Shown here in pieces: positions 8,418-45,734 of a stretch of 64,000 nt of DNA (within the stretch, counting starts at the first letter, position 1; each line of letters starts with the position of its first letter). A program made the translations under genes and the position numbers. The notes under the pieces were generated by a model. The model ran no database searches. It was given only the letters and a program-made list of their open reading frames with translations, and was not told the origin of the DNA. The stretch is taken from IMG/VR virus record IMGVR_UViG_3300046170_000391; one strand, 5' to 3'. Source of the DNA: a virus.

Positions 8418-10262
8418 TTAACTGAAGGCTCCACAGTCTAATATACCTACAATAGTAACTGTATTTGAAGCGTTTGTTCCTAGTGTTGTGTTTGCTACTA
8501 CTGCTAAATCATTTGAGAAACTAGTGTCTCCCGAAGCATCAGCGGTAACTGCTTTTGAAGCGGCGGTAGTGCCTAGAGTAATTCCATCAATCATACCAAG
8601 CTCGGTAGGTGTGACTGCGCTGGAAGCTGCTATTTTACCGTCGCCGTTAGTAATCATCACTCGATCACCAGTTAAGTCACTAGTAAGAACAGTAGATACT
8701 GCACCTGCAATGTTAGCTACACGACGTGCTTCAACGGCTGTAGAGGCTGCTGCCGCAACAGTAGCATTGTCTGCAATAGCAGTGTGTACAGATAATCCAT
8801 CATATTTAAGGGTAGCTGCGTCTACGATACCTACGCTTAAGTTAGAAGCAGTAACAGGAGATAGTGATGTATTAGATTTTGGATCTTTAGTGTCACTAAG
8901 CTTAAATGTTTTCGCTGATTCATCATAGAAAAGAGCAGCATTACCTTGATTACCACGATTAAAAAGCAAACCTACATCTGCACTTGGAGAACCTGATACT
9001 CCATCGGCTAGCATGATTATACGGTCTTCCACATCAAGGTTAGTTGTAGACACTGTAGTAGTGTCACCATTGATTGTTAAATTTCCAGTTATCACAACAT
9101 CATCAGTGAATGTAGTAGTAATATTATTGGCGGCTCGTCTTGCCTCAACCGCATCAAGCTGTGTCTGGATCGCACCAGAAACTCCACTTACATGGTTTAA
9201 CTCTGCTAGCGTAGTAGTCGCAACACCAACTTTTCCTGAACTGTCAGATGCTAAAGCGCGAGATGCTGTAAGGTTGCCTGTTGTAATTGTAGATACTGCA
9301 CCAGCAATATTTGCTACGCGTCTCGCTTCTACTGCTGTAGTAATACCTACATTAGTAGTAAGTCTAGACTGGATAGCAGTAGCTTCAGCAGCTACATTAT
9401 CTTGAACAACGTCAAGATTCGCATTTAAACGAGTTTCTACACTACTAGCAGATACAATTGCGGCAACATTATCTTGAACTAAATCAATATTTGCAGTAAG
9501 ACGGGTAAAGGTTACAAAATCGTTAGCAGCTGCTACAAGAGTATTAGCCGCTATTCGAGCTTGAAGCGCTGTATCTTCATTAGTAAACGCTGTAACGTTA
9601 GTAGCTAAACGAGACTGTAAAGCTGTATCTTCGTTAGTAAACGCTGTAACGTTAGTAGCTAAACGAGACTGTAAAGCTGTATCTTCGTTAGTAAACGCTG
9701 TAACGTTAGTAGCTAAACGAGACTGTAAAGCTGTATCTTCGTTATTCATTACTGTAACGTTAGCAACTCTACGAGCTTCTACAGCGGTAGTAGTAGCTAC
9801 ATTAGTAGTAAGCCTAGCTTGAACATCTATTAATTCTTGGGCAACGTTTGCCACACCACCTGCACTAGGAGTGGTGACATTTGCTTGCTCACCAGAAGCA
9901 CCTGTAACAGTAAACCCCTCATTACCTAGAGCTGAGAGAGTAATACCACCAAGTTTGATAGATGCGCCTGTGAGATGTAGATCTTTCCATTTTTTAGCGG
10001 CAGACCCAAGGTCATACACTCCATCTGTTAAAGGAATTAAATTAGCACTTAGAGTTACTGTATGACCGTCAGTATCAACAATTGAGGCAACATTCGATTG
10101 AATTTGCACTACATTTTGATTTTCATTAGTATCAATAGTAGAGATTAGATTGGCAAGAGTAACCGATTTGGTTTCATCATTTTCAATATCAACTGCTACA
10201 AACTGAGTATTTGCTACGGGAGTTTGTAAATTATTAAGTTCGGTAATCTTTTTATTAGCCAA
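8418..10262 (-). CDS. Long tail fibre / coiled-coil structural protein
   Basis: ANKKITEL start, YDLGS..KKWKDL, recurring AVEARRVAN and TNEDTALQSRLATNVTAF repeats. Confidence 0.75.
   Translation of the reverse strand: MANKKITELNNLQTPVANTQFVAVDIENDETKSVTLANLISTIDTNENQNVVQIQSNVASIVDTDGHTVTLSANLIPLTDGVYDLGSAAKKWKDLHLTGASIKLGGITLSALGNEGFTVTGASGEQANVTTPSAGGVANVAQELIDVQARLTTNVATTTAVEARRVANVTVMNNEDTALQSRLATNVTAFTNEDTALQSRLATNVTAFTNEDTALQSRLATNVTAFTNEDTALQARIAANTLVAAANDFVTFTRLTANIDLVQDNVAAIVSASSVETRLNANLDVVQDNVAAEATAIQSRLTTNVGITTAVEARRVANIAGAVSTITTGNLTASRALASDSSGKVGVATTTLAELNHVSGVSGAIQTQLDAVEARRAANNITTTFTDDVVITGNLTINGDTTTVSTTNLDVEDRIIMLADGVSGSPSADVGLLFNRGNQGNAALFYDESAKTFKLSDTKDPKSNTSLSPVTASNLSVGIVDAATLKYDGLSVHTAIADNATVAAAASTAVEARRVANIAGAVSTVLTSDLTGDRVMITNGDGKIAASSAVTPTELGMIDGITLGTTAASKAVTADASGDTSFSNDLAVVANTTLGTNASNTVTIVGILDCGAFS
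9565..9745. repeat. 54-bp tandem repeat (about 3.3 copies) inside the tail fibre
   Basis: gctgtatcttcgttagtaaacgctgtaacgttagtagctaaacgagactgtaaa repeated. Confidence 0.9.
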
Positions 10263-11993: not shown

Positions 11994-12443
11994 TCATTCC
12001 ATTAAATCTCGCATCAGCTTGTCATAATTGTTAATCTGTACAGCTACAGCAGGGCCAGAAGCCTTCGGCTTCAAGCTCGTCTCCACCTCTTGTAGATGCT
12101 TCATCCAGTCGAGAAGGTCTTTTTTAGAGTAGATGCCTGTTTCCACAGCTTCTTGTATCTTTTGGTCAATGACTGAATTGATTAAATTGATGCGCTTAAT
12201 TCGATTAAGATATCCTTGCGTGGCGAAGACTGAATCAATGTAGTTCTTCACTTCCTTTTTCTCTATGACCGCTGTAACGCGGTCTTCAGATATTCCATAC
12301 TCATCAGCTATTTCGTTTACGCCCTTACCGGATAGGTAATCGTTAGCTAGCGCAAGCACAACCGGGTCCAGAGGCGGAGCCTCTAAGCTGCGGTTTAGTG
12401 CATCAACAGACGTAGTAACCTGTGTTTTATTATTCGATGTCAT
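11994..12443 (-). CDS. terS: Terminase small subunit, T5-like
   Basis: HTH then EVKNYIDSVF...GY.NR...VIDQKIQEA.ETG, resembling T5 TerS. Confidence 0.75.
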   Translation of the reverse strand: MTSNNKTQVTTSVDALNRSLEAPPLDPVVLALANDYLSGKGVNEIADEYGISEDRVTAVIEKKEVKNYIDSVFATQGYLNRIKRINLINSVIDQKIQEAVETGIYSKKDLLDWMKHLQEVETSLKPKASGPAVAVQINNYDKLMRDLME

Positions 12444-12859: not shown

Positions 12860-13287
12860 TAGTCTTCCTCATAAACCATTTCCACCTCTACATCAACTAT
12901 TCCATATGGAGAGAATAGCCCTTCATCAGTTGAGATTGCAATAACCTGTGATCGATGAACTGACAGGTTTGCCGCGTTAGCGGCATAGTCGGTAACTACA
13001 GTCTCAATATCATGTGCTAAGTTCTCAGAATCGTAAATCGAGTCTTCATCACTCATTACATATGCTCTAATAGATTGTCGCAGAGATCTGAGGTGTTGTC
13101 CATCACCTATTTCAACTAAATCTTCACGTGGAGTTCCCCCTAGTGTGATAGTAGGAAAATCGTTAATATCATCTAGATACTTATAGCCACGAGATACTTG
13201 ACTCACGTTAGTGAGGTTGCCGTTGGTAGTATTTATCGTAGATAAACGGTCTACAAGATAATTTAGGATTTCTGTACGTCGGGCCAT
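12859..13287 (-). CDS. Tail terminator/completion protein (T5 p142-like), copy 2
   Basis: RRTEI...DFPTI...STDEGLFSPYG motif. Confidence 0.7.
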   Translation of the reverse strand: MARRTEILNYLVDRLSTINTTNGNLTNVSQVSRGYKYLDDINDFPTITLGGTPREDLVEIGDGQHLRSLRQSIRAYVMSDEDSIYDSENLAHDIETVVTDYAANAANLSVHRSQVIAISTDEGLFSPYGIVDVEVEMVYEED

Positions 13288-15911: not shown

Positions 15912-16382
15912 ATGACTATCAAAAATATCACAATCTTTGACCTAGACGGAACCATTATCGATAGCTCGCATCGCCAAGCTACACTTCCAGATGGCACGTT
16001 AAATCTGCCAGCGTGGATTGAAAATTCCACAGCTGAAAAGATTTTTGGTGATACTGTTTTACCATTAGCTACACAGGTTCGTCGTCGTCAAAAGGCTGGC
16101 GATTATGTTATGGTTTGCACAGCTCGCAATATGAGCGATGCAGATTTTGAATTTCTGCAAGATGTCGGCATTTGCCCTCACAAGATTATCAGTCGTCCAG
16201 ATGGCAATCAAACGCCAGATGGTGAGTTAAAAGCGAAACAACTTAAAAGCTTTTTATCTCTTAAACAGTTTCAAAAAGCCTCAAAGGTTATGTTTGATGA
16301 TGCGGCTTCGGTTCGCACTGCACTTCGCAAGATTGGAATTGCAGTTATTCATCCAGAAAAAATCGAAAAAAAAGTTGCATGA
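15912..16382 (+). CDS. HAD-family phosphatase, paralogue 1
   Basis: IFDLDGT, CTAR, K, FDD motifs. Confidence 0.85.
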   Translation: MTIKNITIFDLDGTIIDSSHRQATLPDGTLNLPAWIENSTAEKIFGDTVLPLATQVRRRQKAGDYVMVCTARNMSDADFEFLQDVGICPHKIISRPDGNQTPDGELKAKQLKSFLSLKQFQKASKVMFDDAASVRTALRKIGIAVIHPEKIEKKVA

Positions 16383-16444
16383 CCCCTTGACATTTGGGGT
16401 TGCAATGCTTATATATAAGGTATAGGAAACGAAAGGTTGAAATT

Positions 16445-16645
16445 ATGTTTGGATGGATTGGATCATTTTTAGTTATCGCTCAGATGATGGCTTTGACAGT
16501 CGGGCTACCAACACACACTGCAATCATGGTTGGATTTGCTGGGGCTTGTTGTTGGATTGTCCACGCTATTCGGCGTGATGACAAGCCATTGCTTTTTGTT
16601 AATACAGCAGTTTTAATGACTGCACTTGTGGGGTTGATGCCATGA
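16445..16645 (+). CDS. Small membrane protein
   Basis: MFGWIGSFLV... after a promoter and AAAGG RBS. Confidence 0.55.
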   Translation: MFGWIGSFLVIAQMMALTVGLPTHTAIMVGFAGACCWIVHAIRRDDKPLLFVNTAVLMTALVGLMP

Positions 16646-16754
16646 AATATAATATCAAAAAAATTATGGTTGGATTATATCTGGCCTATTCAGTCGCAAC
16701 AGATACAATCATCTGGGGTGGCGCGCTTTATCTCTTAATCAATGGGGGTTTCTA

Positions 16755-17375
16755 ATGTCTGAAAGATTGCAAAATTTTATCAAGTTAAATGAACTCGCTG
16801 AAAATATCTTTGACACTGGCCGCCGTGTTGCGGTTGTGTTAGAGGGGCGCGATGGTGCGGGTAAATCTGGCACTGTTCGAGAAATCACCCGCTATATGCC
16901 ACCATACGCCTACCGCGTCCAACCGTCATTTATGCCATCAAAACGCATGATGAAATCTTGGTTGCCCGAATGGAAGAAACTTTTGCCTCAAAAAGGGCAG
17001 ATGGTTATTTATGATCGCTCTTGGTATTCTCGCGCATTGCTACAGCCTGTTATGGGATGGTGTTCAGATCGTCAATACAAAAATTTTATGCGCGACGTGA
17101 CTGACTGGGAACATGAACAGCAATTTGAGGTTGTCAAGGTTTGGCTTTCGGTTAACGAAAAAAAGCAACGTCAATTATTATCTCGCCGTGTTGATGATCC
17201 GCTTCGCTATTGGAAATACAGCCCGAATGATCCAAAATCGCTAGACGCATTTGACGCGATTACTCAAAAGAAAAATGCAATGTTTGAACTGAATTTTGAT
17301 TGGAACGTGATTGACATGGAAAGCAGGGATCATGGACGCAATCGGGTTATTGAAAATATTATCTCACAACTTTAA
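16755..17375 (+). CDS. ppk2: Polyphosphate kinase 2
   Basis: VVLEGRDGAGKSG Walker A, YDRSWYSR Walker B, K.WLSV, R..DPLRYWKYS. Confidence 0.92.
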   Translation: MSERLQNFIKLNELAENIFDTGRRVAVVLEGRDGAGKSGTVREITRYMPPYAYRVQPSFMPSKRMMKSWLPEWKKLLPQKGQMVIYDRSWYSRALLQPVMGWCSDRQYKNFMRDVTDWEHEQQFEVVKVWLSVNEKKQRQLLSRRVDDPLRYWKYSPNDPKSLDAFDAITQKKNAMFELNFDWNVIDMESRDHGRNRVIENIISQL

Positions 17376-17404
17376 TAAAAAAGGGGCGTAAGCCTCTTTT
17401 TTTA
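17376..17404. terminator. Bidirectional intrinsic terminator
   Basis: aaaaaaggggc-gtaa-gcctctttttt. Confidence 0.7.
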
Positions 17405-17409
17405 TTGAC

Positions 17410-17610
17410 AAAATCCAAGGGCGCGCCGGTTGGACGGGAAAACCTAATGAAATCAATCACTTAGCACTACCAAGACCTACCGGCGGCCGACTCGTAAGTC
17501 ATTGTTTTTAAAGGAAAATAAAAATGATAACCCACTGAAAACAAACAAAACTATTTTCACTTTGCCCCTTGATTTTTAGGGTTAGAATGCTTATATATAA
17601 AGGGTAACAG
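17410..17610 (+). promoter_or_regulatory. Spacer module 3: GGCGCGCC, IHF-type sites, promoter
   Basis: AATCAATCACTTA 17451; TAAGTCATTGTTT 17495; TAACCCACTGAAA 17528; CCCCTTGA..ATGCTTATAT. Confidence 0.7.
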
Positions 17611-17626
17611 AAAAAAGGGTTTACAA

Positions 17627-18292
17627 ATGACTATTCAAAAAAATGCTTATGTTGTCATGGATACAGAAACCAGCTTTCGCAATGGTTTGGTTTTCGATTT
17701 TGGTTGGACGACTATCGACAAGCGTGGTAATGTTCTCGGCTCGGCTGACCTCAATTTCCTTGACGTTATCTGCAAGGAAAAGCCTTACTATATCCACAAG
17801 ATTGCAGGCTATGCCAGACGCCAACGCAAAGCAATCCACAAGGTGACGACTTTTGCGGTTGGTCAACGCTTGTTCAATCTGCACATTCAACATCTCAAGG
17901 CGGCTGGTTATCGCGTTATTCTTTGCGCTTATAATGCTGGTTTTGATTGCCGCGTTTTGGGTGGCACATCTCGCGCTTTTGGTTGTGGCAAATTTTTGAG
18001 ACACTCGGTTGAGTTGCTAGACATTTGGGGTAATTGGGCGTTATCTGCTCCAAAATGTTACACAGCCCCAGCGACAGCAAGCGGCAAATTTTTGTCCACC
18101 ACTGCCCAGAATGTTTATCGCTTTGAAAGCCAACAGCCAGATTTTATCGAGGCGCATACCGCATATGAGGATACCACTATCGAGGCAGAAATTTTGCTCA
18201 AGATTTTGAGGCGTAAAAAGAGGCTGAAGGTTGTCAAAACCCCACGCGAATTTGATGCTCAGATTTGGGAAAAATTTCCAGTTGCGGCTTAA
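17627..18292 (+). CDS. DEDDh 3'-5' exonuclease
   Basis: DTET, AYNAGFD, HTAYED motifs. Confidence 0.85.
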   Translation: MTIQKNAYVVMDTETSFRNGLVFDFGWTTIDKRGNVLGSADLNFLDVICKEKPYYIHKIAGYARRQRKAIHKVTTFAVGQRLFNLHIQHLKAAGYRVILCAYNAGFDCRVLGGTSRAFGCGKFLRHSVELLDIWGNWALSAPKCYTAPATASGKFLSTTAQNVYRFESQQPDFIEAHTAYEDTTIEAEILLKILRRKKRLKVVKTPREFDAQIWEKFPVAA

Positions 18293-18380
18293 TTACGCAA
18301 AATAATTTCACTCTGACCCCTTGAAAAAAGGGGTTGGAATGCTTATATATAATATATAGAAACAAACAAAGAGGTTAAAA

Positions 18381-18854
18381 ATGACTATTAAAAATATTAC
18401 AATATTCGATCTTGATGGCACTGTGATCGACTCTAGCCATAGACAAGCGACTAAGCCAGATGGCACACTTGATCTTGCCAAATGGTTTGAAAATGCTACT
18501 CCAGAAAAAATCTTTCAAGACAAGGTTTTGCCACTGGCTCAACAAATGAGACGCAGGTCAAAGGCTGGTGATTATACCATGATTTGCACAGCTAGAACAC
18601 TAAGCCAAGCTGATCTTGAATTTTTTCATCAAGAAGGTTTATTGGTTGATAAAATTATCTCAAGAAAACAAGGAGATATGACTCCTGATGGTGAGTTAAA
18701 AGCTAAACAGCTTCGTTCGTTCTTTTCTCTTAAACAATTCAAAGACTTAAACAAGGTGATGTTTGATGATGCTCCAAGCGTCCGTAAGTCACTGAGAAAG
18801 CTAGGAATTTCAGTAATCAACCCTAACAAAATAAATCAGCGACTAGCTGGTTAG
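18381..18854 (+). CDS. HAD-family phosphatase, paralogue 2
   Basis: Very similar to 15912-16382 along the whole length. Confidence 0.85.
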   Translation: MTIKNITIFDLDGTVIDSSHRQATKPDGTLDLAKWFENATPEKIFQDKVLPLAQQMRRRSKAGDYTMICTARTLSQADLEFFHQEGLLVDKIISRKQGDMTPDGELKAKQLRSFFSLKQFKDLNKVMFDDAPSVRKSLRKLGISVINPNKINQRLAG

Positions 18855-20740: not shown

Positions 20741-21049
20741 ATGGCTGCAACTATCAAAAACGTAAACTATACCGCCGAACTTACCGCAGCAATCGTTGAG
20801 CAGTACCAGCAGGGTACTGACGTGGACGCAATCGCTGATTCTATCGGTAAAAGCATCCGTTCGGTGCGTTCAAAGCTGGTACGCGAAGGTGTGTACGTAG
20901 CGAAGCCGAAGGTCGCTGCAAAGCGCGATATGGGTCCAACTAAGAAGGAACTTCTTAAGGACTTAGAAGCTACTGGTTTTGAGGTAGCTGGTTTCGAGGG
21001 GGCTACTAAAGAGGCCATCGTCCGCCTCTTGGGACACTTCGCGAACTAA
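20741..21049 (+). CDS. T5 A2-like DNA-binding protein, copy 2
   Basis: Paralogue of 19205; AGGAG RBS; TTGCTT..TATTAT promoter at about 20688-20720. Confidence 0.7.
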   Translation: MAATIKNVNYTAELTAAIVEQYQQGTDVDAIADSIGKSIRSVRSKLVREGVYVAKPKVAAKRDMGPTKKELLKDLEATGFEVAGFEGATKEAIVRLLGHFAN

Positions 21050-21070
21050 GACACTCGTCAGAGTGTTTGG

Positions 21071-21100
21071 AGGGACAGGCTTCGGTCTGTCCCTTTTTTT
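21071..21100 (+). terminator. Intrinsic terminator
   Basis: agggacaggc-ttcg-gtctgtccct followed by a T run. Confidence 0.9.
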
Positions 21101-22128
21101 ATGAACAAAATCAAGCACTTACATCTACATTATGTGCTCAACGCACCAGTACAAGTACGAAGTATAATTTCAATTGCTTGTGCACCGCTGCGCCAGTGCA
21201 AAGTCAACCATAAAGTCACATCGCTTGCTAGCATTAGTGTAAATAAATCAAAAGTCCATAGTCTATTTCCAAAACAACAAGTCATATATTCAAGTCTGGT
21301 CTAAACCCCTACCCACCCTGGTATAATAACACATAAAAACAGCTCTGCGCAAGGCTGCACTGGCTCCCTACGGTCGCCACAGTCCAATAAACAGTAAAAA
21401 TAATGTGTTATATGGTAAAAAATGGTAAAATAGCAAAGAAATAGCTGTTTTTACGTAGTAAAACAGACAAATAAGTGCATTTACGGAGTAAAATAGCTCC
21501 CCAATAAACCAGAAAATGATTGACGAGAGGGTCTGCTTGGCAGCGCTATGCGAACTCCGTTCGCGGGCTGTGCGAGAAGAATTCCGATGTAGGGAGGCAA
21601 TCATATCACTTCGTGATACAACTGTCCCAAGCACACACGCTCCGCGTGGAATCGAAATAGTGAGTATGTTTATGGAATATAGTATAAAGTGAACGAACGA
21701 AGTTCGATAGCTGGTACAGCCTCTATGCTCCCTACGGTCGCTTATGTTATCTATGTACAAAGGCTATATACACGGCTACGCAACGTGGTGTAAAAGCTGT
21801 GTAACATATGTAATAGCTATGTAATCGCTGTTACAAAAAAAAAGACGCTGTGTAATAGCTAAACAGCGGCTTCGTTTGCGTTCTGTATACAAATAATAGC
21901 AGAATATTTGTACATTGTCAACGGGTTGTATTGGGTAATTTTGTGAAATGAGAAGTTTAGAAATGACGAATTAGTTACTCTTTATTCATGTATACATTGT
22001 ACTATAATTGGTATGGATTTCAACAGTTAGGTTCATACTTTTTGTATAGTTGCTAAAGACTGTAGTGTGAAAAATGCTACAAAAATTTCTCTCTGTAGCA
22101 TTGGTAGGATATAATTTGGTTGATTAGA

Positions 22129-23895: not shown

Positions 23896-25221
23896 TTAAA
23901 AGTACATAATTGCAATACGTTTGGACACCCAAAAGATTGTATCATGCAATAAAAATCCAAATATCAATGGACTAGTATCAAGTTTACGCATTAATAGCCC
24001 AAACGGAACTAGCATTGCGAAAATTAAAAGATGATCTTCACCGTTCATGGTGACATTTCCTAACCACCATATCATAAAAATTAACGATGAGACAATAAAT
24101 AAGTAAAGTTTCTCTACACTAAATCCATCTAAAAAACGAAAGATGTTGATGTATTTACCTGCAACAAGTAGTCCAATAGTGGAACTTAACATGAAACAGA
24201 TAACTACTAGTGAAAAGGTATCTTGAAACCATGCAACGGTAAGAGAAACTCCTTTTGACTCTAAAATGTTATAAATTAACGCCTCAGCCGCAGTAATCGG
24301 TATACCTAAAAACAGTAAAGGAACTAACTGAGTAAAAGCTCCTGCATTATTAGAACCCTCACTAGCAATTAAACACTTAACATCCCCTTTACGATATGCT
24401 TTACCTCTAAAAATCTTCTCACCATAGTAAGCAAACAAGGTACTAGCAGAGTAAGCCAATCCTGGCACAAATCCTCCGATACACCCAATAAACGCACTCC
24501 TGAGTAAAGTTAAGTAATGATTTTTGATTTCAAGTAGTGAATGCCAGTACCCTTTAATAGTTAGCAAAGGCCAAGAAATAGCCGAACTATCTTTTAGATA
24601 GCTGTTAATAAAGTTAGGAATTATGAATAGTGCTACAATAACACATAAAGTAGGAATACCTCCATATAACGGAGTCCAGTTAAGAGTTAAATTGTGAATA
24701 CCGAGAGACTCATCATAACCAATCCATCCTAAAAATAATCCTAATAAAAACAGTATAGTGTTAATCCAAATACGATTAGGCGAAAAAAGCACAATGGAGA
24801 TGAAAGCTATTGCAAAAATAACTGCTTGTACAGTGCTATTCCACATTTCATAGAATAAAAATAGAATAGGAATACAGGCTAATACAAACATCACCGCAAA
24901 AGCACTACAAAACCAACTAGCAATAGCACTAAACATAATTGCTTTGTCGCCTTCTCCACGCCTAAACATTGTGTGACCTTCAATCACACTTGGTACAGCA
25001 GTAGCATATCCTGGAAGTCCTAGTAAGATAGCAGAAGTGTTATTAAAGTATTGGTCAATACTTATCAACACCACATAAAATAACACTACATTTACAGGGT
25101 CAAGACTCATTAAAAAAGGAAAAGCAGTTACTAAAACAACTAAACCACCAACTCCTGGCATAAGTCCCCCAAATATGCCGGAGAGGGTAGCTAATATAAA
25201 TACTACAACAGTCTCGATCAA
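23896..25221 (-). CDS. tctA: Tripartite tricarboxylate transporter large permease TctA
   Basis: G..GG.MPG.G, AILLGLPG, GCIGGFVPG, EGSNNA, LGIP motifs; multi-TM. Confidence 0.85.
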   Translation of the reverse strand: MIETVVVFILATLSGIFGGLMPGVGGLVVLVTAFPFLMSLDPVNVVLFYVVLISIDQYFNNTSAILLGLPGYATAVPSVIEGHTMFRRGEGDKAIMFSAIASWFCSAFAVMFVLACIPILFLFYEMWNSTVQAVIFAIAFISIVLFSPNRIWINTILFLLGLFLGWIGYDESLGIHNLTLNWTPLYGGIPTLCVIVALFIIPNFINSYLKDSSAISWPLLTIKGYWHSLLEIKNHYLTLLRSAFIGCIGGFVPGLAYSASTLFAYYGEKIFRGKAYRKGDVKCLIASEGSNNAGAFTQLVPLLFLGIPITAAEALIYNILESKGVSLTVAWFQDTFSLVVICFMLSSTIGLLVAGKYINIFRFLDGFSVEKLYLFIVSSLIFMIWWLGNVTMNGEDHLLIFAMLVPFGLLMRKLDTSPLIFGFLLHDTIFWVSKRIAIMYF

Positions 25222-42995: not shown

Positions 42996-43439
42996 CTATT
43001 CTCTTGGGTCACGGCCTACTTGCAAAGATAGGACAGTTATACTAGATACATTTTTTTGTTTATATCCGTATAGGTGAAAGCCTTTGAACGGAGGAGTGGG
43101 GGAACATTCATAAATGAAAGGTTGTGCTTCTGCATATCTTTTCGCTGGCATATCAGCGTCAACCCCGTAGGCAAAAGAAGGGTGAAATTTATTATAAGTG
43201 AAATCAAAAGTTCCTACAGTTCCATCCTCTAACTTAACAGTGCAGACAGTGTGAGAATCACCATTATCGAAAAAAGAAGTGATAATATAAACTTTAGAGT
43301 AGTAACTACTTAACCAGAAAGCACACATTGCAGCATGCTCTCCGCATCTCCAAATACGTCTTGTAGTATCGATACGATTGTCTCTTATATTATCACCTTG
43401 ATGAGCTATAAGAGAAATCATTACTGGAGGTTTATACAT
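42996..43439 (-). CDS. Transglutaminase-like protein
   Basis: RCGEHA...HT....FDFT putative Cys-His-Asp triad. Confidence 0.45.
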   Translation of the reverse strand: MYKPPVMISLIAHQGDNIRDNRIDTTRRIWRCGEHAAMCAFWLSSYYSKVYIITSFFDNGDSHTVCTVKLEDGTVGTFDFTYNKFHPSFAYGVDADMPAKRYAEAQPFIYECSPTPPFKGFHLYGYKQKNVSSITVLSLQVGRDPRE

Positions 43440-45734
43440 AGTTTCTTAAATTAAGGCACAAGTATGACGTGAAACTGGGCAACTCCGTTGCCCCACTAGC
43501 TCCCTACGGTCGCACAACTAAACGATAGCCTGTGCCGCGCTGTTCGCCAGCGTTTTTAATCGTTTAACAGCTAACGCATATAAATTAGCATACATGAAGG
43601 CCAGTGTCCAAATTAAAATATTACCAATCGCGAGGTTTAGGATCATCTAACCAATCATCCATCACGCTAAAGTCTAAGCCTGCGCCAATGAGAATCTGAC
43701 AAGCATAGTTTGCTTCTAGATTGTACTCTATCAACGAGTAGTATCCATTTTCTGATTGATCGTAGAACATGATCCAAGGCAGCTCATGCATATTATTTTC
43801 AATACGTGCTTTTGTCACGCCAGCTATAAACGGAGTGAGACCTTCTTCAGCTTGGCGCTCATTGACTTCAGCTACAGACGCACACTGTACAGGTTTAGAT
43901 GCCCACTCAGGTTCAGCCTGTGCAGAAACTGCCCATAAGAATGCCAGAACAAAGGCTAGCGCTCTCATTCTTCGCTCATAAAGACGTCAAGCATTTCCAT
44001 GCGATCTTGTGCAGCTGCCATCTTATCCAACTCATCTTGGATTGCTTCCATAATATCAGAGTGTTCACCAATACCTGCAGGATTTTCCATGTATACTTCG
44101 ATATTAGCTTTGTGTAGTAAAAACTCTCCATGCGCATGAGCATAAGCCGCATCGAGCATATTATTCTTCAGTCGTGTCATTTTGATTCCTTTGCTGTTTT
44201 AAGTATTGATAAAGTTGAATATAATAGTAGAATGTTTTCGGATAGAGATCAGGGTCTGGTAGAGAACCAAACATCTGACACATTTCTTTTATCTCTTCTA
44301 ATTTTAACATTTAGTTAGTAAAAACCCAGATCACATTTGTCGCACTTTTGGGTTGAATTTGGTCAGCACGATGAATACCTACTGACGGTAGAGTTTGAGC
44401 AATTTCAACTGTTGGTTTAGTTTGTGTTTGAATGATTTCTTCTTCACTAGTGTAGTGGTCATAAGCGTGTGCCACTCCAAGTATTAATCCTAATGCTACC
44501 ATAGCTTCCATTATTCTGATTCCCCTTCTTGTTTAATTTGTTGTAATCCAAACTCTGTTTGTTCATAGAGATTTTGATCTATGAATCTACGTTCTCCAAC
44601 CTGTAGTTGTATTGGGTCGCGGATTACCAGTGTTTCACCACACTTTGTGCAGTAGGCTTGCATTCCAAAACGGGAAATTAAGCAAAAGTTATGTCCAAAA
44701 AATGCACATATTACGTTCATTACACACCCTCTGAATTAATTGGTTTGCAAAGGTATGTAACAGATGTCCAATCACCATCGAGAGGGATCTGTTGATACAG
44801 TCCTTTTGATAGTTCACATTCTTGTTTAGTGTCAAACCACTGAACATCTTGCACTACACAGTTTGAACCTAAACATGCGGTTAATAGAATTTGCCAAATA
44901 ATCTCCATCAGAACAACCCTACGATACCTCTTATAGCTGTATATACAATAATACCAGCTGTAAGAGCAAAAGGCAAGTATACTAACACAATCTCAATGTC
45001 GTCATGTTCTCTAAAGAATTGAATAATTTTACTCATGTTCTCCTCCTGGATCATTTGAATCAAGCATAACTCGCTTACCATTAATCCACATGTGCCCTCG
45101 TGTGCGACTTACAGAATGATAACCATCCGTGCGCAACCTAAAAAGTTCAGGTTTGTTCTTTGCAACTGTAAAGGTTCCAACAGTGATTGCAATCGCTGCC
45201 AACACAATAACGTGTGCAATAGCAGTGACTCCAAACATCCACATGCTGCCAAAGTAGCTACTAAACACAATACACCACATCCAGGCTAATACTTGCATCA
45301 CCATGTGTCGTGTGTTTAAGTCTGGAATATGTCGTAATGGATTCATATTATGATCCATGATTGTATTCCAACAGTTTATAATAAATGTGCTCATTGGATA
45401 AACTCCTTTGTTAAATGTAACACGAAGTGGATAATGAGCGTCCACTGTGTCTCTAAAATCTATTGCGTCATACTGATCTACAAAGTATCGAGTAACAACA
45501 TGACTTTTGAAATATGCTTTTACTTGATACATTAATACCTCAATAAGTAGTCCCAATGACCTGATGTTCTGACACATACCCAGTCACGATTAAGAGTTCT
45601 AAAATTGTATTCAAACTCTTGTTCTGTTTTTGCAGCATAACACTCAGCAATTGAAGTGTGTATGCTAATTTTTTCTGCTAATAAATTATTGCCTACAAGT
45701 GAAACCATTACAAGAATCCACATTATATCTCCTT

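Follow-up and report, generated by a model that had tools for sequence, protein, structure and literature searches.

The window examined here, a 64-kb stretch of DNA considered at its full length, comes from an uncultured marine phage that belongs to a distant T5-like lineage. Its genes for the major head protein, protease, portal and large terminase stand in the T5 order, and the large terminase is approximately 40% identical to the terminases of Demerecviridae, which account for all of its best matches; at the DNA level, no similarity to cultured phages was found by megablast or blastn. A block of rightward genes at 13.8-21.05 kb carries two homologues of T5 dmp, a PPK2 gene and two copies of a 100-aa A2-like family; the window yielded no detectable homologue of A1. 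The two dmp-like genes encode paralogous HAD phosphatases (41% identical to T5 dmp) and flank the PPK2 polyphosphate kinase gene on the plus strand (15912-18854). The last gene before the array described below (20741-21049, plus strand) is predicted to encode a small A2-like DNA-binding protein of 102 aa. Alignment of the profile of this family with T5 A2 by hhalign gave a probability of 80% and an E value of 1.5e-5, and the motif SVRSKL is common to the family and T5 A2; a tblastn search of cultured phages with the A2-like protein produced no match.

The rightward block is closed by an intrinsic terminator with a 12-bp stem, a TTCG loop and a T-run (21069-21096, plus strand), and a terminator stands at the equivalent position in the more divergent relatives that we refer to as group 2. 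Beyond it extends a gap of 1.08 kb that holds no credible gene, tRNA or tmRNA, and leftward genes follow from 22129 on. The tRNAs of the window are found at 45.7 kb, within these leftward genes. On the minus strand at 23896-25221 there is a full-length gene for a TctA-family tricarboxylate transporter membrane protein (Pfam E 4e-58), which is an unusual auxiliary gene for a phage.

The succession of a rightward block with its terminator, a non-coding gap and leftward early genes is the layout of a T5-type injection-stop signal (iss) or Repeat Region 3. In T5, My1 and PR1, rightward genes and a terminator are likewise followed by a gap of approximately 1.1-2.1 kb and then by leftward early genes, and the annotated terminal repeat of all three ends inside the gap, 1.06-1.3 kb past the last rightward gene. 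The iss feature of T5 lies in the same gap (Repeat Region 3, NC_005859 9140-10409) and, like the array in our window, comes after a terminator and before leftward early genes; both regions are non-coding, about 1 kb long and dense in palindromes or repeats. They differ in that the A2 gene is directly upstream of the array in the window, whereas it is about 5 kb away in T5. Because of this synteny we place the array at the iss-equivalent position, and the window looks like a junction of late genes, a collapsed terminal repeat and early genes. This agrees with an earlier reading of the sequence alone, which had located the hairpin cluster at the convergence of pre-early and early transcription, the place of the injection-stop region in T5.

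The array comprises about 400 non-coding bases in which short perfect stems are capped by 3-nt G-N-A loops closed by a C-G pair, the defining features of c(GNA)g mini-hairpins. Loops of the d(GNA) type with C-G closure are exceptionally stable (PMC3201870). Six of the hairpins have perfect stems or, in the case of H4, a perfect core. H1 (TTTTAC-GTA-GTAAAA, 21449-21463) and H2 (TTTAC-GGA-GTAAA, 21480-21492) are read on the plus strand and are contained in an A-rich zone of about 120 bp with GTAAAA repeats (21384-21500, plus strand). H3 (GCGAAC-GGA-GTTCGC, 21550-21564), which serves as the invariant anchor of the array, H4 (TATCAC-GAA-GTGATA, core at 21604-21618, 21598-21624 with its extension) and H5 (CACGC-GGA-GCGTG, 21636-21648) are read on the minus strand. 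H6 (CGAAC-GAA-GTTCG, 21694-21706) has its loop on the plus strand here and on either strand in relatives. It is followed on the plus strand by a small, nearly invariant hairpin, AGCTG-GTA-CAGC (21709-21721), located 6 nt from the second copy of a repeat, box A, that is described below. Further right, TGTAA(T/A)AGCT iteron-like repeats at 21790-21860 enclose H7 (TGTAA-TCGCTG-TTACA, 21820-21843, plus strand), which shows one compensatory pair and precedes an A9 tract.

Mini-hairpins of this kind are rare elsewhere in the window. With a perfect stem of at least 5 bp required, 10 c(GNA)g hairpins occur on both strands of the 64 kb, and 6 of these fall in 21449-21706, leaving only 4 in the other 63 kb. 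Among all perfect 3-nt-centred palindromes with stems of at least 5 bp, the c(GNA)g type accounts for 6/6 in 21300-21900 and for 4/90 in the remainder of the window. A comparison of the region with shuffled sequence confirmed the enrichment, since 5000 dinucleotide-preserving shuffles of the region gave a mean of 0.018 such hairpins and a maximum of 1, compared with the 6 observed. The single-strand folding energy of the whole region is only slightly lower than that of shuffles (z of -2.0 and -1.35), a comparison of little weight because the standard DNA parameters used probably include no bonus for GNA triloops. The sequence-only reading had counted at least nine hairpins, and all nine elements exist where it placed them; six are robust and two, the box A copies, are imperfect yet conserved, but the ninth is negligible and the count was to that extent overstated. 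This last element, a GC-GTA-GC heptamer with a 2-bp stem (21775-21781, minus strand), is weak and lacks conservation, and it carries no weight alone because 79 elements of the same 2-bp-stem class occur in the window. Of the four c(GNA)g hairpins that lie beyond the array, three (12058-12072, 12370-12384 and 13232-13246) are near the presumed left terminal-repeat boundary. Two of these three are within the small-terminase gene, and one sequence from this 12.0-13.3 kb group, AGAGGC-GGA-GCCTCT, recurs in at least 10 relatives.

The 15-nt box A, GCTCCCTACGGTCGC, occurs at 21363 and again, without any change, as a direct repeat at 21727, and it can be drawn as an imperfect hairpin with two non-Watson-Crick positions. 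On the minus strand its first copy (21363-21377), which we also call H0, reads GCGACC-GTA-GGGAGC, with a stem that contains tandem G.A mismatches and a loop of the c(GTA)g type; the second copy (21727-21741, minus strand) is nearly invariant in relatives, and the first is invariant in 13/13 aligned relatives. The internal mismatches are G.A/A.G on the minus strand and T.C/C.T on the plus strand, and only the minus-strand form gives a well-paired, stable hairpin. The flanking pairs covary (TGGC/GCCA versus CCGC/GCGG). Box A itself is absent from the group-2 records, which have a perfect GCGCAC-GAA-GTGCGC hairpin at the position of the group-1 box A. For this reason, box A is best read as a putative minus-strand hairpin that includes a tandem G.A pair and whose outer pairs covary. 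An exact scan of the viral collection with box A returned about as many matches as expected by chance, and only multi-copy or syntenic matches were used.

A third exact copy of box A occurs at 43499-43513, 6 nt from a GGGCAAC-GGA-GTTGCCC hairpin. Box A and the c(GGA)g hairpin (together 43477-43513) are part of a unit of about 100 nt situated between leftward genes (43430-43570, minus sense). The unit is conserved in at least 10 other contigs, where its hairpins covary and a long-range helix shows G-U to G-C changes. These patterns suggest a small RNA or 5' leader. No Rfam match was found at 43.4-43.7 kb, and a search for relatives of the gene adjoining the element found none.

Promoter-like elements flank the array on both sides. 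On the left, a C-rich box precedes an extended -10-like element, TGGTATAAT (21305-21328, plus strand), a candidate promoter that is conserved in group 1 (alignment A1) and whose group-2 equivalent is CCCTCCCACCTCACCC..TATCAT (alignment A4). The C-rich box, CCCCTMCCCACCC, which is G-rich on the minus strand, lies directly upstream of the -10-like element and is kept in both array groups (columns 190-225 of A4). On the right, a conserved sigma-70-type promoter is predicted on the minus strand (TTGACA-17-TATTAT with a TG; 21921-21893), and a hairpin with a T11 run comes within the next 45 nt or so, so that the whole feature spans 21836-21921. The relative L017 keeps both this leftward promoter and the terminator-like site, and no leftward promoter was found in group 2. 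The segment is likely to be a very short leftward transcription unit that stops before the array, and it could produce a tiny transcript or act as a transcriptional insulator at the array edge.

We searched a viral contig collection with the two flanking proteins, which yielded 82 loci, and an independent metagenome scan with H3 and its flank added 41 contigs. The array is present with constant order and spacing in 23 non-redundant metagenomic arrays. In group 1, the order is the C-rich box with its -10-like element, box A, the A-rich zone, the plus-strand hairpins, H3, H4, H5 and H6, after which come the AGCTG-GTA-CAGC hairpin, the second box A, a covarying TGTRA...TYACA hairpin, the A9 tract and the leftward promoter. 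Relative to H3, H4 is at +54, H5 at +85 and H6 at +144. One or two A/T-rich c(GNA)g hairpins are found on the plus strand approximately 101 and 80 nt before H3, with stems that differ among relatives, and the A-rich zone keeps its composition but not its sequence. Group 2 (A4) follows the same array logic with different stems. In 48/51 non-redundant contigs of both sets, H3 is preceded, at a distance of 41-733 nt, by the end of an A2-like gene on the same strand.

Across the 23 arrays, 95/114 perfect 3-nt-centred palindromes are of the c(GNA)g type (83%), compared with 27/293 (9%) elsewhere in the same contigs, and the loops are GAA (52), GGA (33), GTA (15) and GCA (2). The loops are therefore kept as GNA in relatives, as the initial proposal of a GNA hairpin cluster implied. 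H3 is identical in every group-1 and group-2 relative examined, with L061 as a GTA loop variant. The three outer pairs of the H4 core covary, as does its 6-position extension (AGGT/ACCT, CACTT/AAGTG and CATGT/ACATG), and H5 has an invariant core, a GAA loop in relatives and a covarying sixth pair.

The zone equivalent to 21565-21940 is also a hotspot of assembly breaks in relatives. Seventeen of the 39 metagenome contigs with H3 end 15-301 nt to the right of it, which is far above chance, and three of the five contigs that approach from the early-gene side end at positions equivalent to 21872-21940. These ends are scattered over 300 nt, often 0-15 nt past a hairpin, and on these grounds we rejected their clustering as proof of a physical genome end. 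We suspect that the breaks result from hairpin-induced failure of sequencing or assembly, and conceivably they might reflect a physical end or nicks.

Several explanations for the array were discarded. A cluster of intrinsic terminators was rejected because the hairpins lack T-runs, and dispersed REP or MITE elements were rejected because the array is a single locus. There is no repeat-spacer structure and no integrase, as a CRISPR array or an attachment site would require, and a coding region was dismissed because indels are not in threes and the overlapping open reading frames have no family matches.

The pattern of substitutions bears on whether the hairpins act as DNA or as RNA. In the five scorable helices of alignment A1, nine pairs have changed on both sides (23 cells), 95.8% of cells are paired, one-sided changes number 0 in 28 pairs, and there are no G-U or G-T intermediates. 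RNA helices usually do show G-U intermediates. The core stems are perfect, so a comparison of the two strands by wobble pairs versus A.C mismatches had no mismatches to score; the H4 extension of the window, however, pairs via three G.T pairs on the minus strand only. The GAA loop of H6 is on the plus strand in the window and in relatives L017, L027, L015, L022 and L008, and on the minus strand in L047, L024, L021, L018, L012 and L029, with stems that are the same or covary between the two sets. A change from GAA to TTC amounts to three simultaneous substitutions. Since the inversion is seen within closely related pairs of both groups, at least three independent events must have occurred, and the simplest cause would be a hairpin-templated inversion, which requires that a DNA hairpin forms.

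The other loops behave differently from that of H6. There is no inversion in H0, H3, H4 or H5, and H1 and H2 have their loops on the plus strand in every case; this fixed orientation from H0 to H5 indicates that loop orientation is under selection. It speaks against duplex operators, which would be symmetric, and equally against a cruciform with a purely structural role. Moreover, the half-sites vary between positions and have the C-GNA-G core alone in common, and one dimeric protein would therefore not explain the array. Taken against RNA, strand-specific DNA hairpins are probably the better reading by a clear measure. The proposal in the sequence-only reading that the signal acts as single-stranded or extruded DNA rather than RNA is accordingly favored by the lack of wobble pairs, the flipping of H6 and the strand-specific pairing.

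An RNA function would most plausibly take the form of convergent non-coding transcripts, one running rightward from the TGGTATAAT box and one leftward from the promoter at 21921, that carry most GNA loops in the sense orientation. Promoter-like elements are indeed conserved on both flanks, the orientations of H1, H2 and H3-H5 fit the nearer promoter, and box A recurs with a c(GGA)g hairpin at 43477-43513, in the unit of roughly 100 nt where G-U has changed to G-C in the long-range helix. Nevertheless, box A copy 1 is antisense to its nearer promoter, the leftward promoter is directly followed by a hairpin and T-run, and group 2 keeps the minus-strand hairpins without a leftward promoter. The region also lacks the marks of a structured non-coding RNA: a search of 19-24 kb against Rfam gave no credible match and one sub-threshold chance match, core stems are free of wobble intermediates, the hairpins are split over two strands, and one of them flips. 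In addition, the loops are nearly all 3-nt GNA, whereas a TTCG tetraloop caps the one clear RNA terminator hairpin in the vicinity. We consider the RNA explanation quite improbable. Even less probable, to the point of being very hard to sustain, is that the hairpins are N4-type promoters for a phage single-subunit RNA polymerase that could, for example, pull in the remaining genome. The geometry is the same, in that early promoters of the N4 virion RNA polymerase have a stem of 5-7 bp and a purine-rich, C-G-closed 3-nt loop (GCGGAGC core), and, as in the array, they are strand-specific and mix conserved with covarying stem positions. They are also part of the DNA that is injected first, and the array has a comparable, presumed place (PMC4496689, PMC13037366). 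However, no T7/N4-like polymerase domain was found in the open reading frames of the window or in five partial relatives (17-65% complete), and PF00940 had no match in these five. T5 uses the host polymerase throughout (PMC7472727). There are no open reading frames downstream of the hairpins in the gap, and six hairpins in both orientations within 260 bp, or six to eight per 400 bp on both strands, are unlike a promoter set.

Two further explanations assign the array to genome ends or to replication. It is possible, if rather unlikely, that the right end of a long terminal repeat is marked by the array together with the iteron and A-tract segment beside it, either as a site of terminase recognition or cutting or through fold-back hairpins that duplicate the repeat, a route reportedly proposed for the T7 concatemer junction. 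That junction resembles the array in having non-coding short repeats and hairpin-forming sequence beside a terminal-repeat boundary, but T7 has a repeat of 160 bp and a hairpin formed by a longer palindrome, and the position of the array at a boundary is only presumed. In line with a repeat end, the repeats of T5, My1 and PR1 stop in the same gap, the large terminase belongs with those of the T5 long-repeat type, and the contigs of relatives end within the array or shortly past it far above chance from one side and at the equivalents of 21872-21940 from the other. The scatter of these stops over 300 nt is nevertheless better explained by hairpin-induced sequencing or assembly failure, stems of 5-6 bp are short for fold-back priming, and the presumed left boundary has no matching array but only three isolated c(GNA)g hairpins at 12.0-13.3 kb. 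A replication origin or single-strand initiation site, in which the A-rich zone unwinds and primase starts divergent leading strands from hairpins on opposite strands, is less probable again and in our view unlikely. Its models are hairpin I of G4 ori(c) and RSF1010 ssiA/ssiB, which like the array have c(GAA)g-type caps, act in single-stranded DNA and include opposite-strand elements, the primase-recognised hairpins of G4 and ssiA being capped by the same kind of mini-hairpin (PMC13037366). Priming on H1/H2 of the plus strand and H3-H5 of the minus strand would diverge from about 21520, and both a 120-bp A-rich zone and iteron-like repeats are at hand. The known signals, however, are defined origins with a dedicated initiator or primase, while the array has no linked gene for an origin-binding protein or a primase, the linked gene being A2-like. 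Replication genes are not in first-step DNA, GC skew in the window tracks gene orientation only, and T5 origins have been placed near the middle of the genome by electron microscopy, as cited in a study of T5 (10.1101/866236).

The array and the T5 iss share only some of their elements. No sequence similarity between the array and the T5 iss is detectable. Davison proposes that paired DnaA boxes (IRD'-spacer-IRC') together with DRE and DRD repeats constitute the T5 iss (10.1101/866236). In the window, the IRD'-spacer-IRC' arrangement with paired DnaA boxes and the DRE and DRD repeats are absent; the gap has one exact DnaA box (TTWTNCACA) and no pairs, unlike the T5 cluster, and none of its three GCGC sites has the Pu^GCGC nick context next to box A. 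The palindromes of the T5 iss region (NC_005859 9587-10251) nevertheless point the same way, in that all six perfect 3-nt-centred examples are GNA-centred, compared with 21/203 elsewhere. The 111.6-kb T5 genome has six c(GNA)g hairpins with stems of at least 5 bp, three of which are in the iss (9899, 10081 and 10239), and CGAAC-GCA-GTTCG at 9899 is on the same strand as H3. We found no paper that notes the GNA centres of the T5 iss palindromes. The array differs from this region in that nearly all of its palindromes are GNA mini-hairpins with C-G closure, and their order is fixed and strand-specific. In the My1 gap there is one c(GNA)g hairpin along with two AATGA-GAA-TCATT palindromes, and the PR1 gap has no c(GNA)g hairpins; for this reason, the hairpins are not a general feature of iss regions. 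The T5 region shows no more than a faint trace of the principle, and a dense, ordered array is a trait of the marine lineage.

We tentatively favor the view that the array is a cis-acting DNA-structure signal that controls a two-step DNA transfer, because of its position, its linkage to an A2-like gene and the precedent of N4 for extrusion in incoming DNA. In T5, DNA transfer halts at the iss until A1 and A2 have been made, and A2 is needed for second-step transfer. The stretch would be the equivalent of T5 Repeat Region 3, at the inner end of the terminal-repeat DNA that is transferred first, built of H0, H3, H4 and H5 on the minus strand, H1 and H2 on the plus strand and H6 on either. Once in the cell, first-step DNA could become topologically constrained and underwound, and the palindromes might then extrude as small hairpins, as do the c(GGA)g hairpins of N4 early promoters. 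N4 hairpins, with stems of 5-7 bp and 3-nt loops, extrude from duplex DNA under gyrase-driven supercoiling, and SSB stabilises the hairpin on one strand and melts the other (PMC4496689). Similarly, a GNA-loop hairpin on the selected strand of the array would persist while a single-strand binding protein melts its partner, and the resulting structured nucleoprotein segment would act in cis as the signal for DNA transfer to pause there and then to resume. The A2-like DNA-binding protein, whose gene is immediately upstream, may recognise this signal. Although the hairpins, their conservation and strand specificity, the synteny and the gene linkage are observed directly, we infer the extrusion, the protein binding and the effect on transfer. 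Several points weigh against a transfer signal, such as the absence of T5-type iss elements, the lack of a detected A1 homologue in the window and the occurrence of box A at 43499 in an element that looks like RNA. Furthermore, hairpins of this type are known to serve in priming and in promoter recognition, and not in the arrest of translocation. Our literature search found no paper that joins first-step transfer, phage T5 and hairpins.

The mechanism by which T5 stops and restarts injection has been an open problem for more than 50 years. More speculatively than the role of the array itself, T5-like two-step transfer may be controlled by strand-specific mini-hairpins extruded from incoming duplex, as in N4, such that the stop signal is a DNA structure. 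With the same reserve, the GNA-centred palindromes of T5 may be a diluted version of this arrangement, and the stop signal would not be a protein-binding sequence. A distant lineage that keeps the position and rebuilds the region from one motif defined by hairpin stability in single-stranded DNA, with selection acting on the loop-bearing strand, narrows the hypothesis to DNA secondary structure. It also provides short elements that can be tested, such as hairpin oligonucleotides, loop swaps and the GNA palindromes of T5. The natural sites of c(GNA)g hairpins include the G4 primase hairpin, RSF1010 ssiA and the N4 early promoter GCGGAGC (PMC13037366), and the array would extend the natural uses of these mini-hairpins beyond N4 promoters and primase signals.
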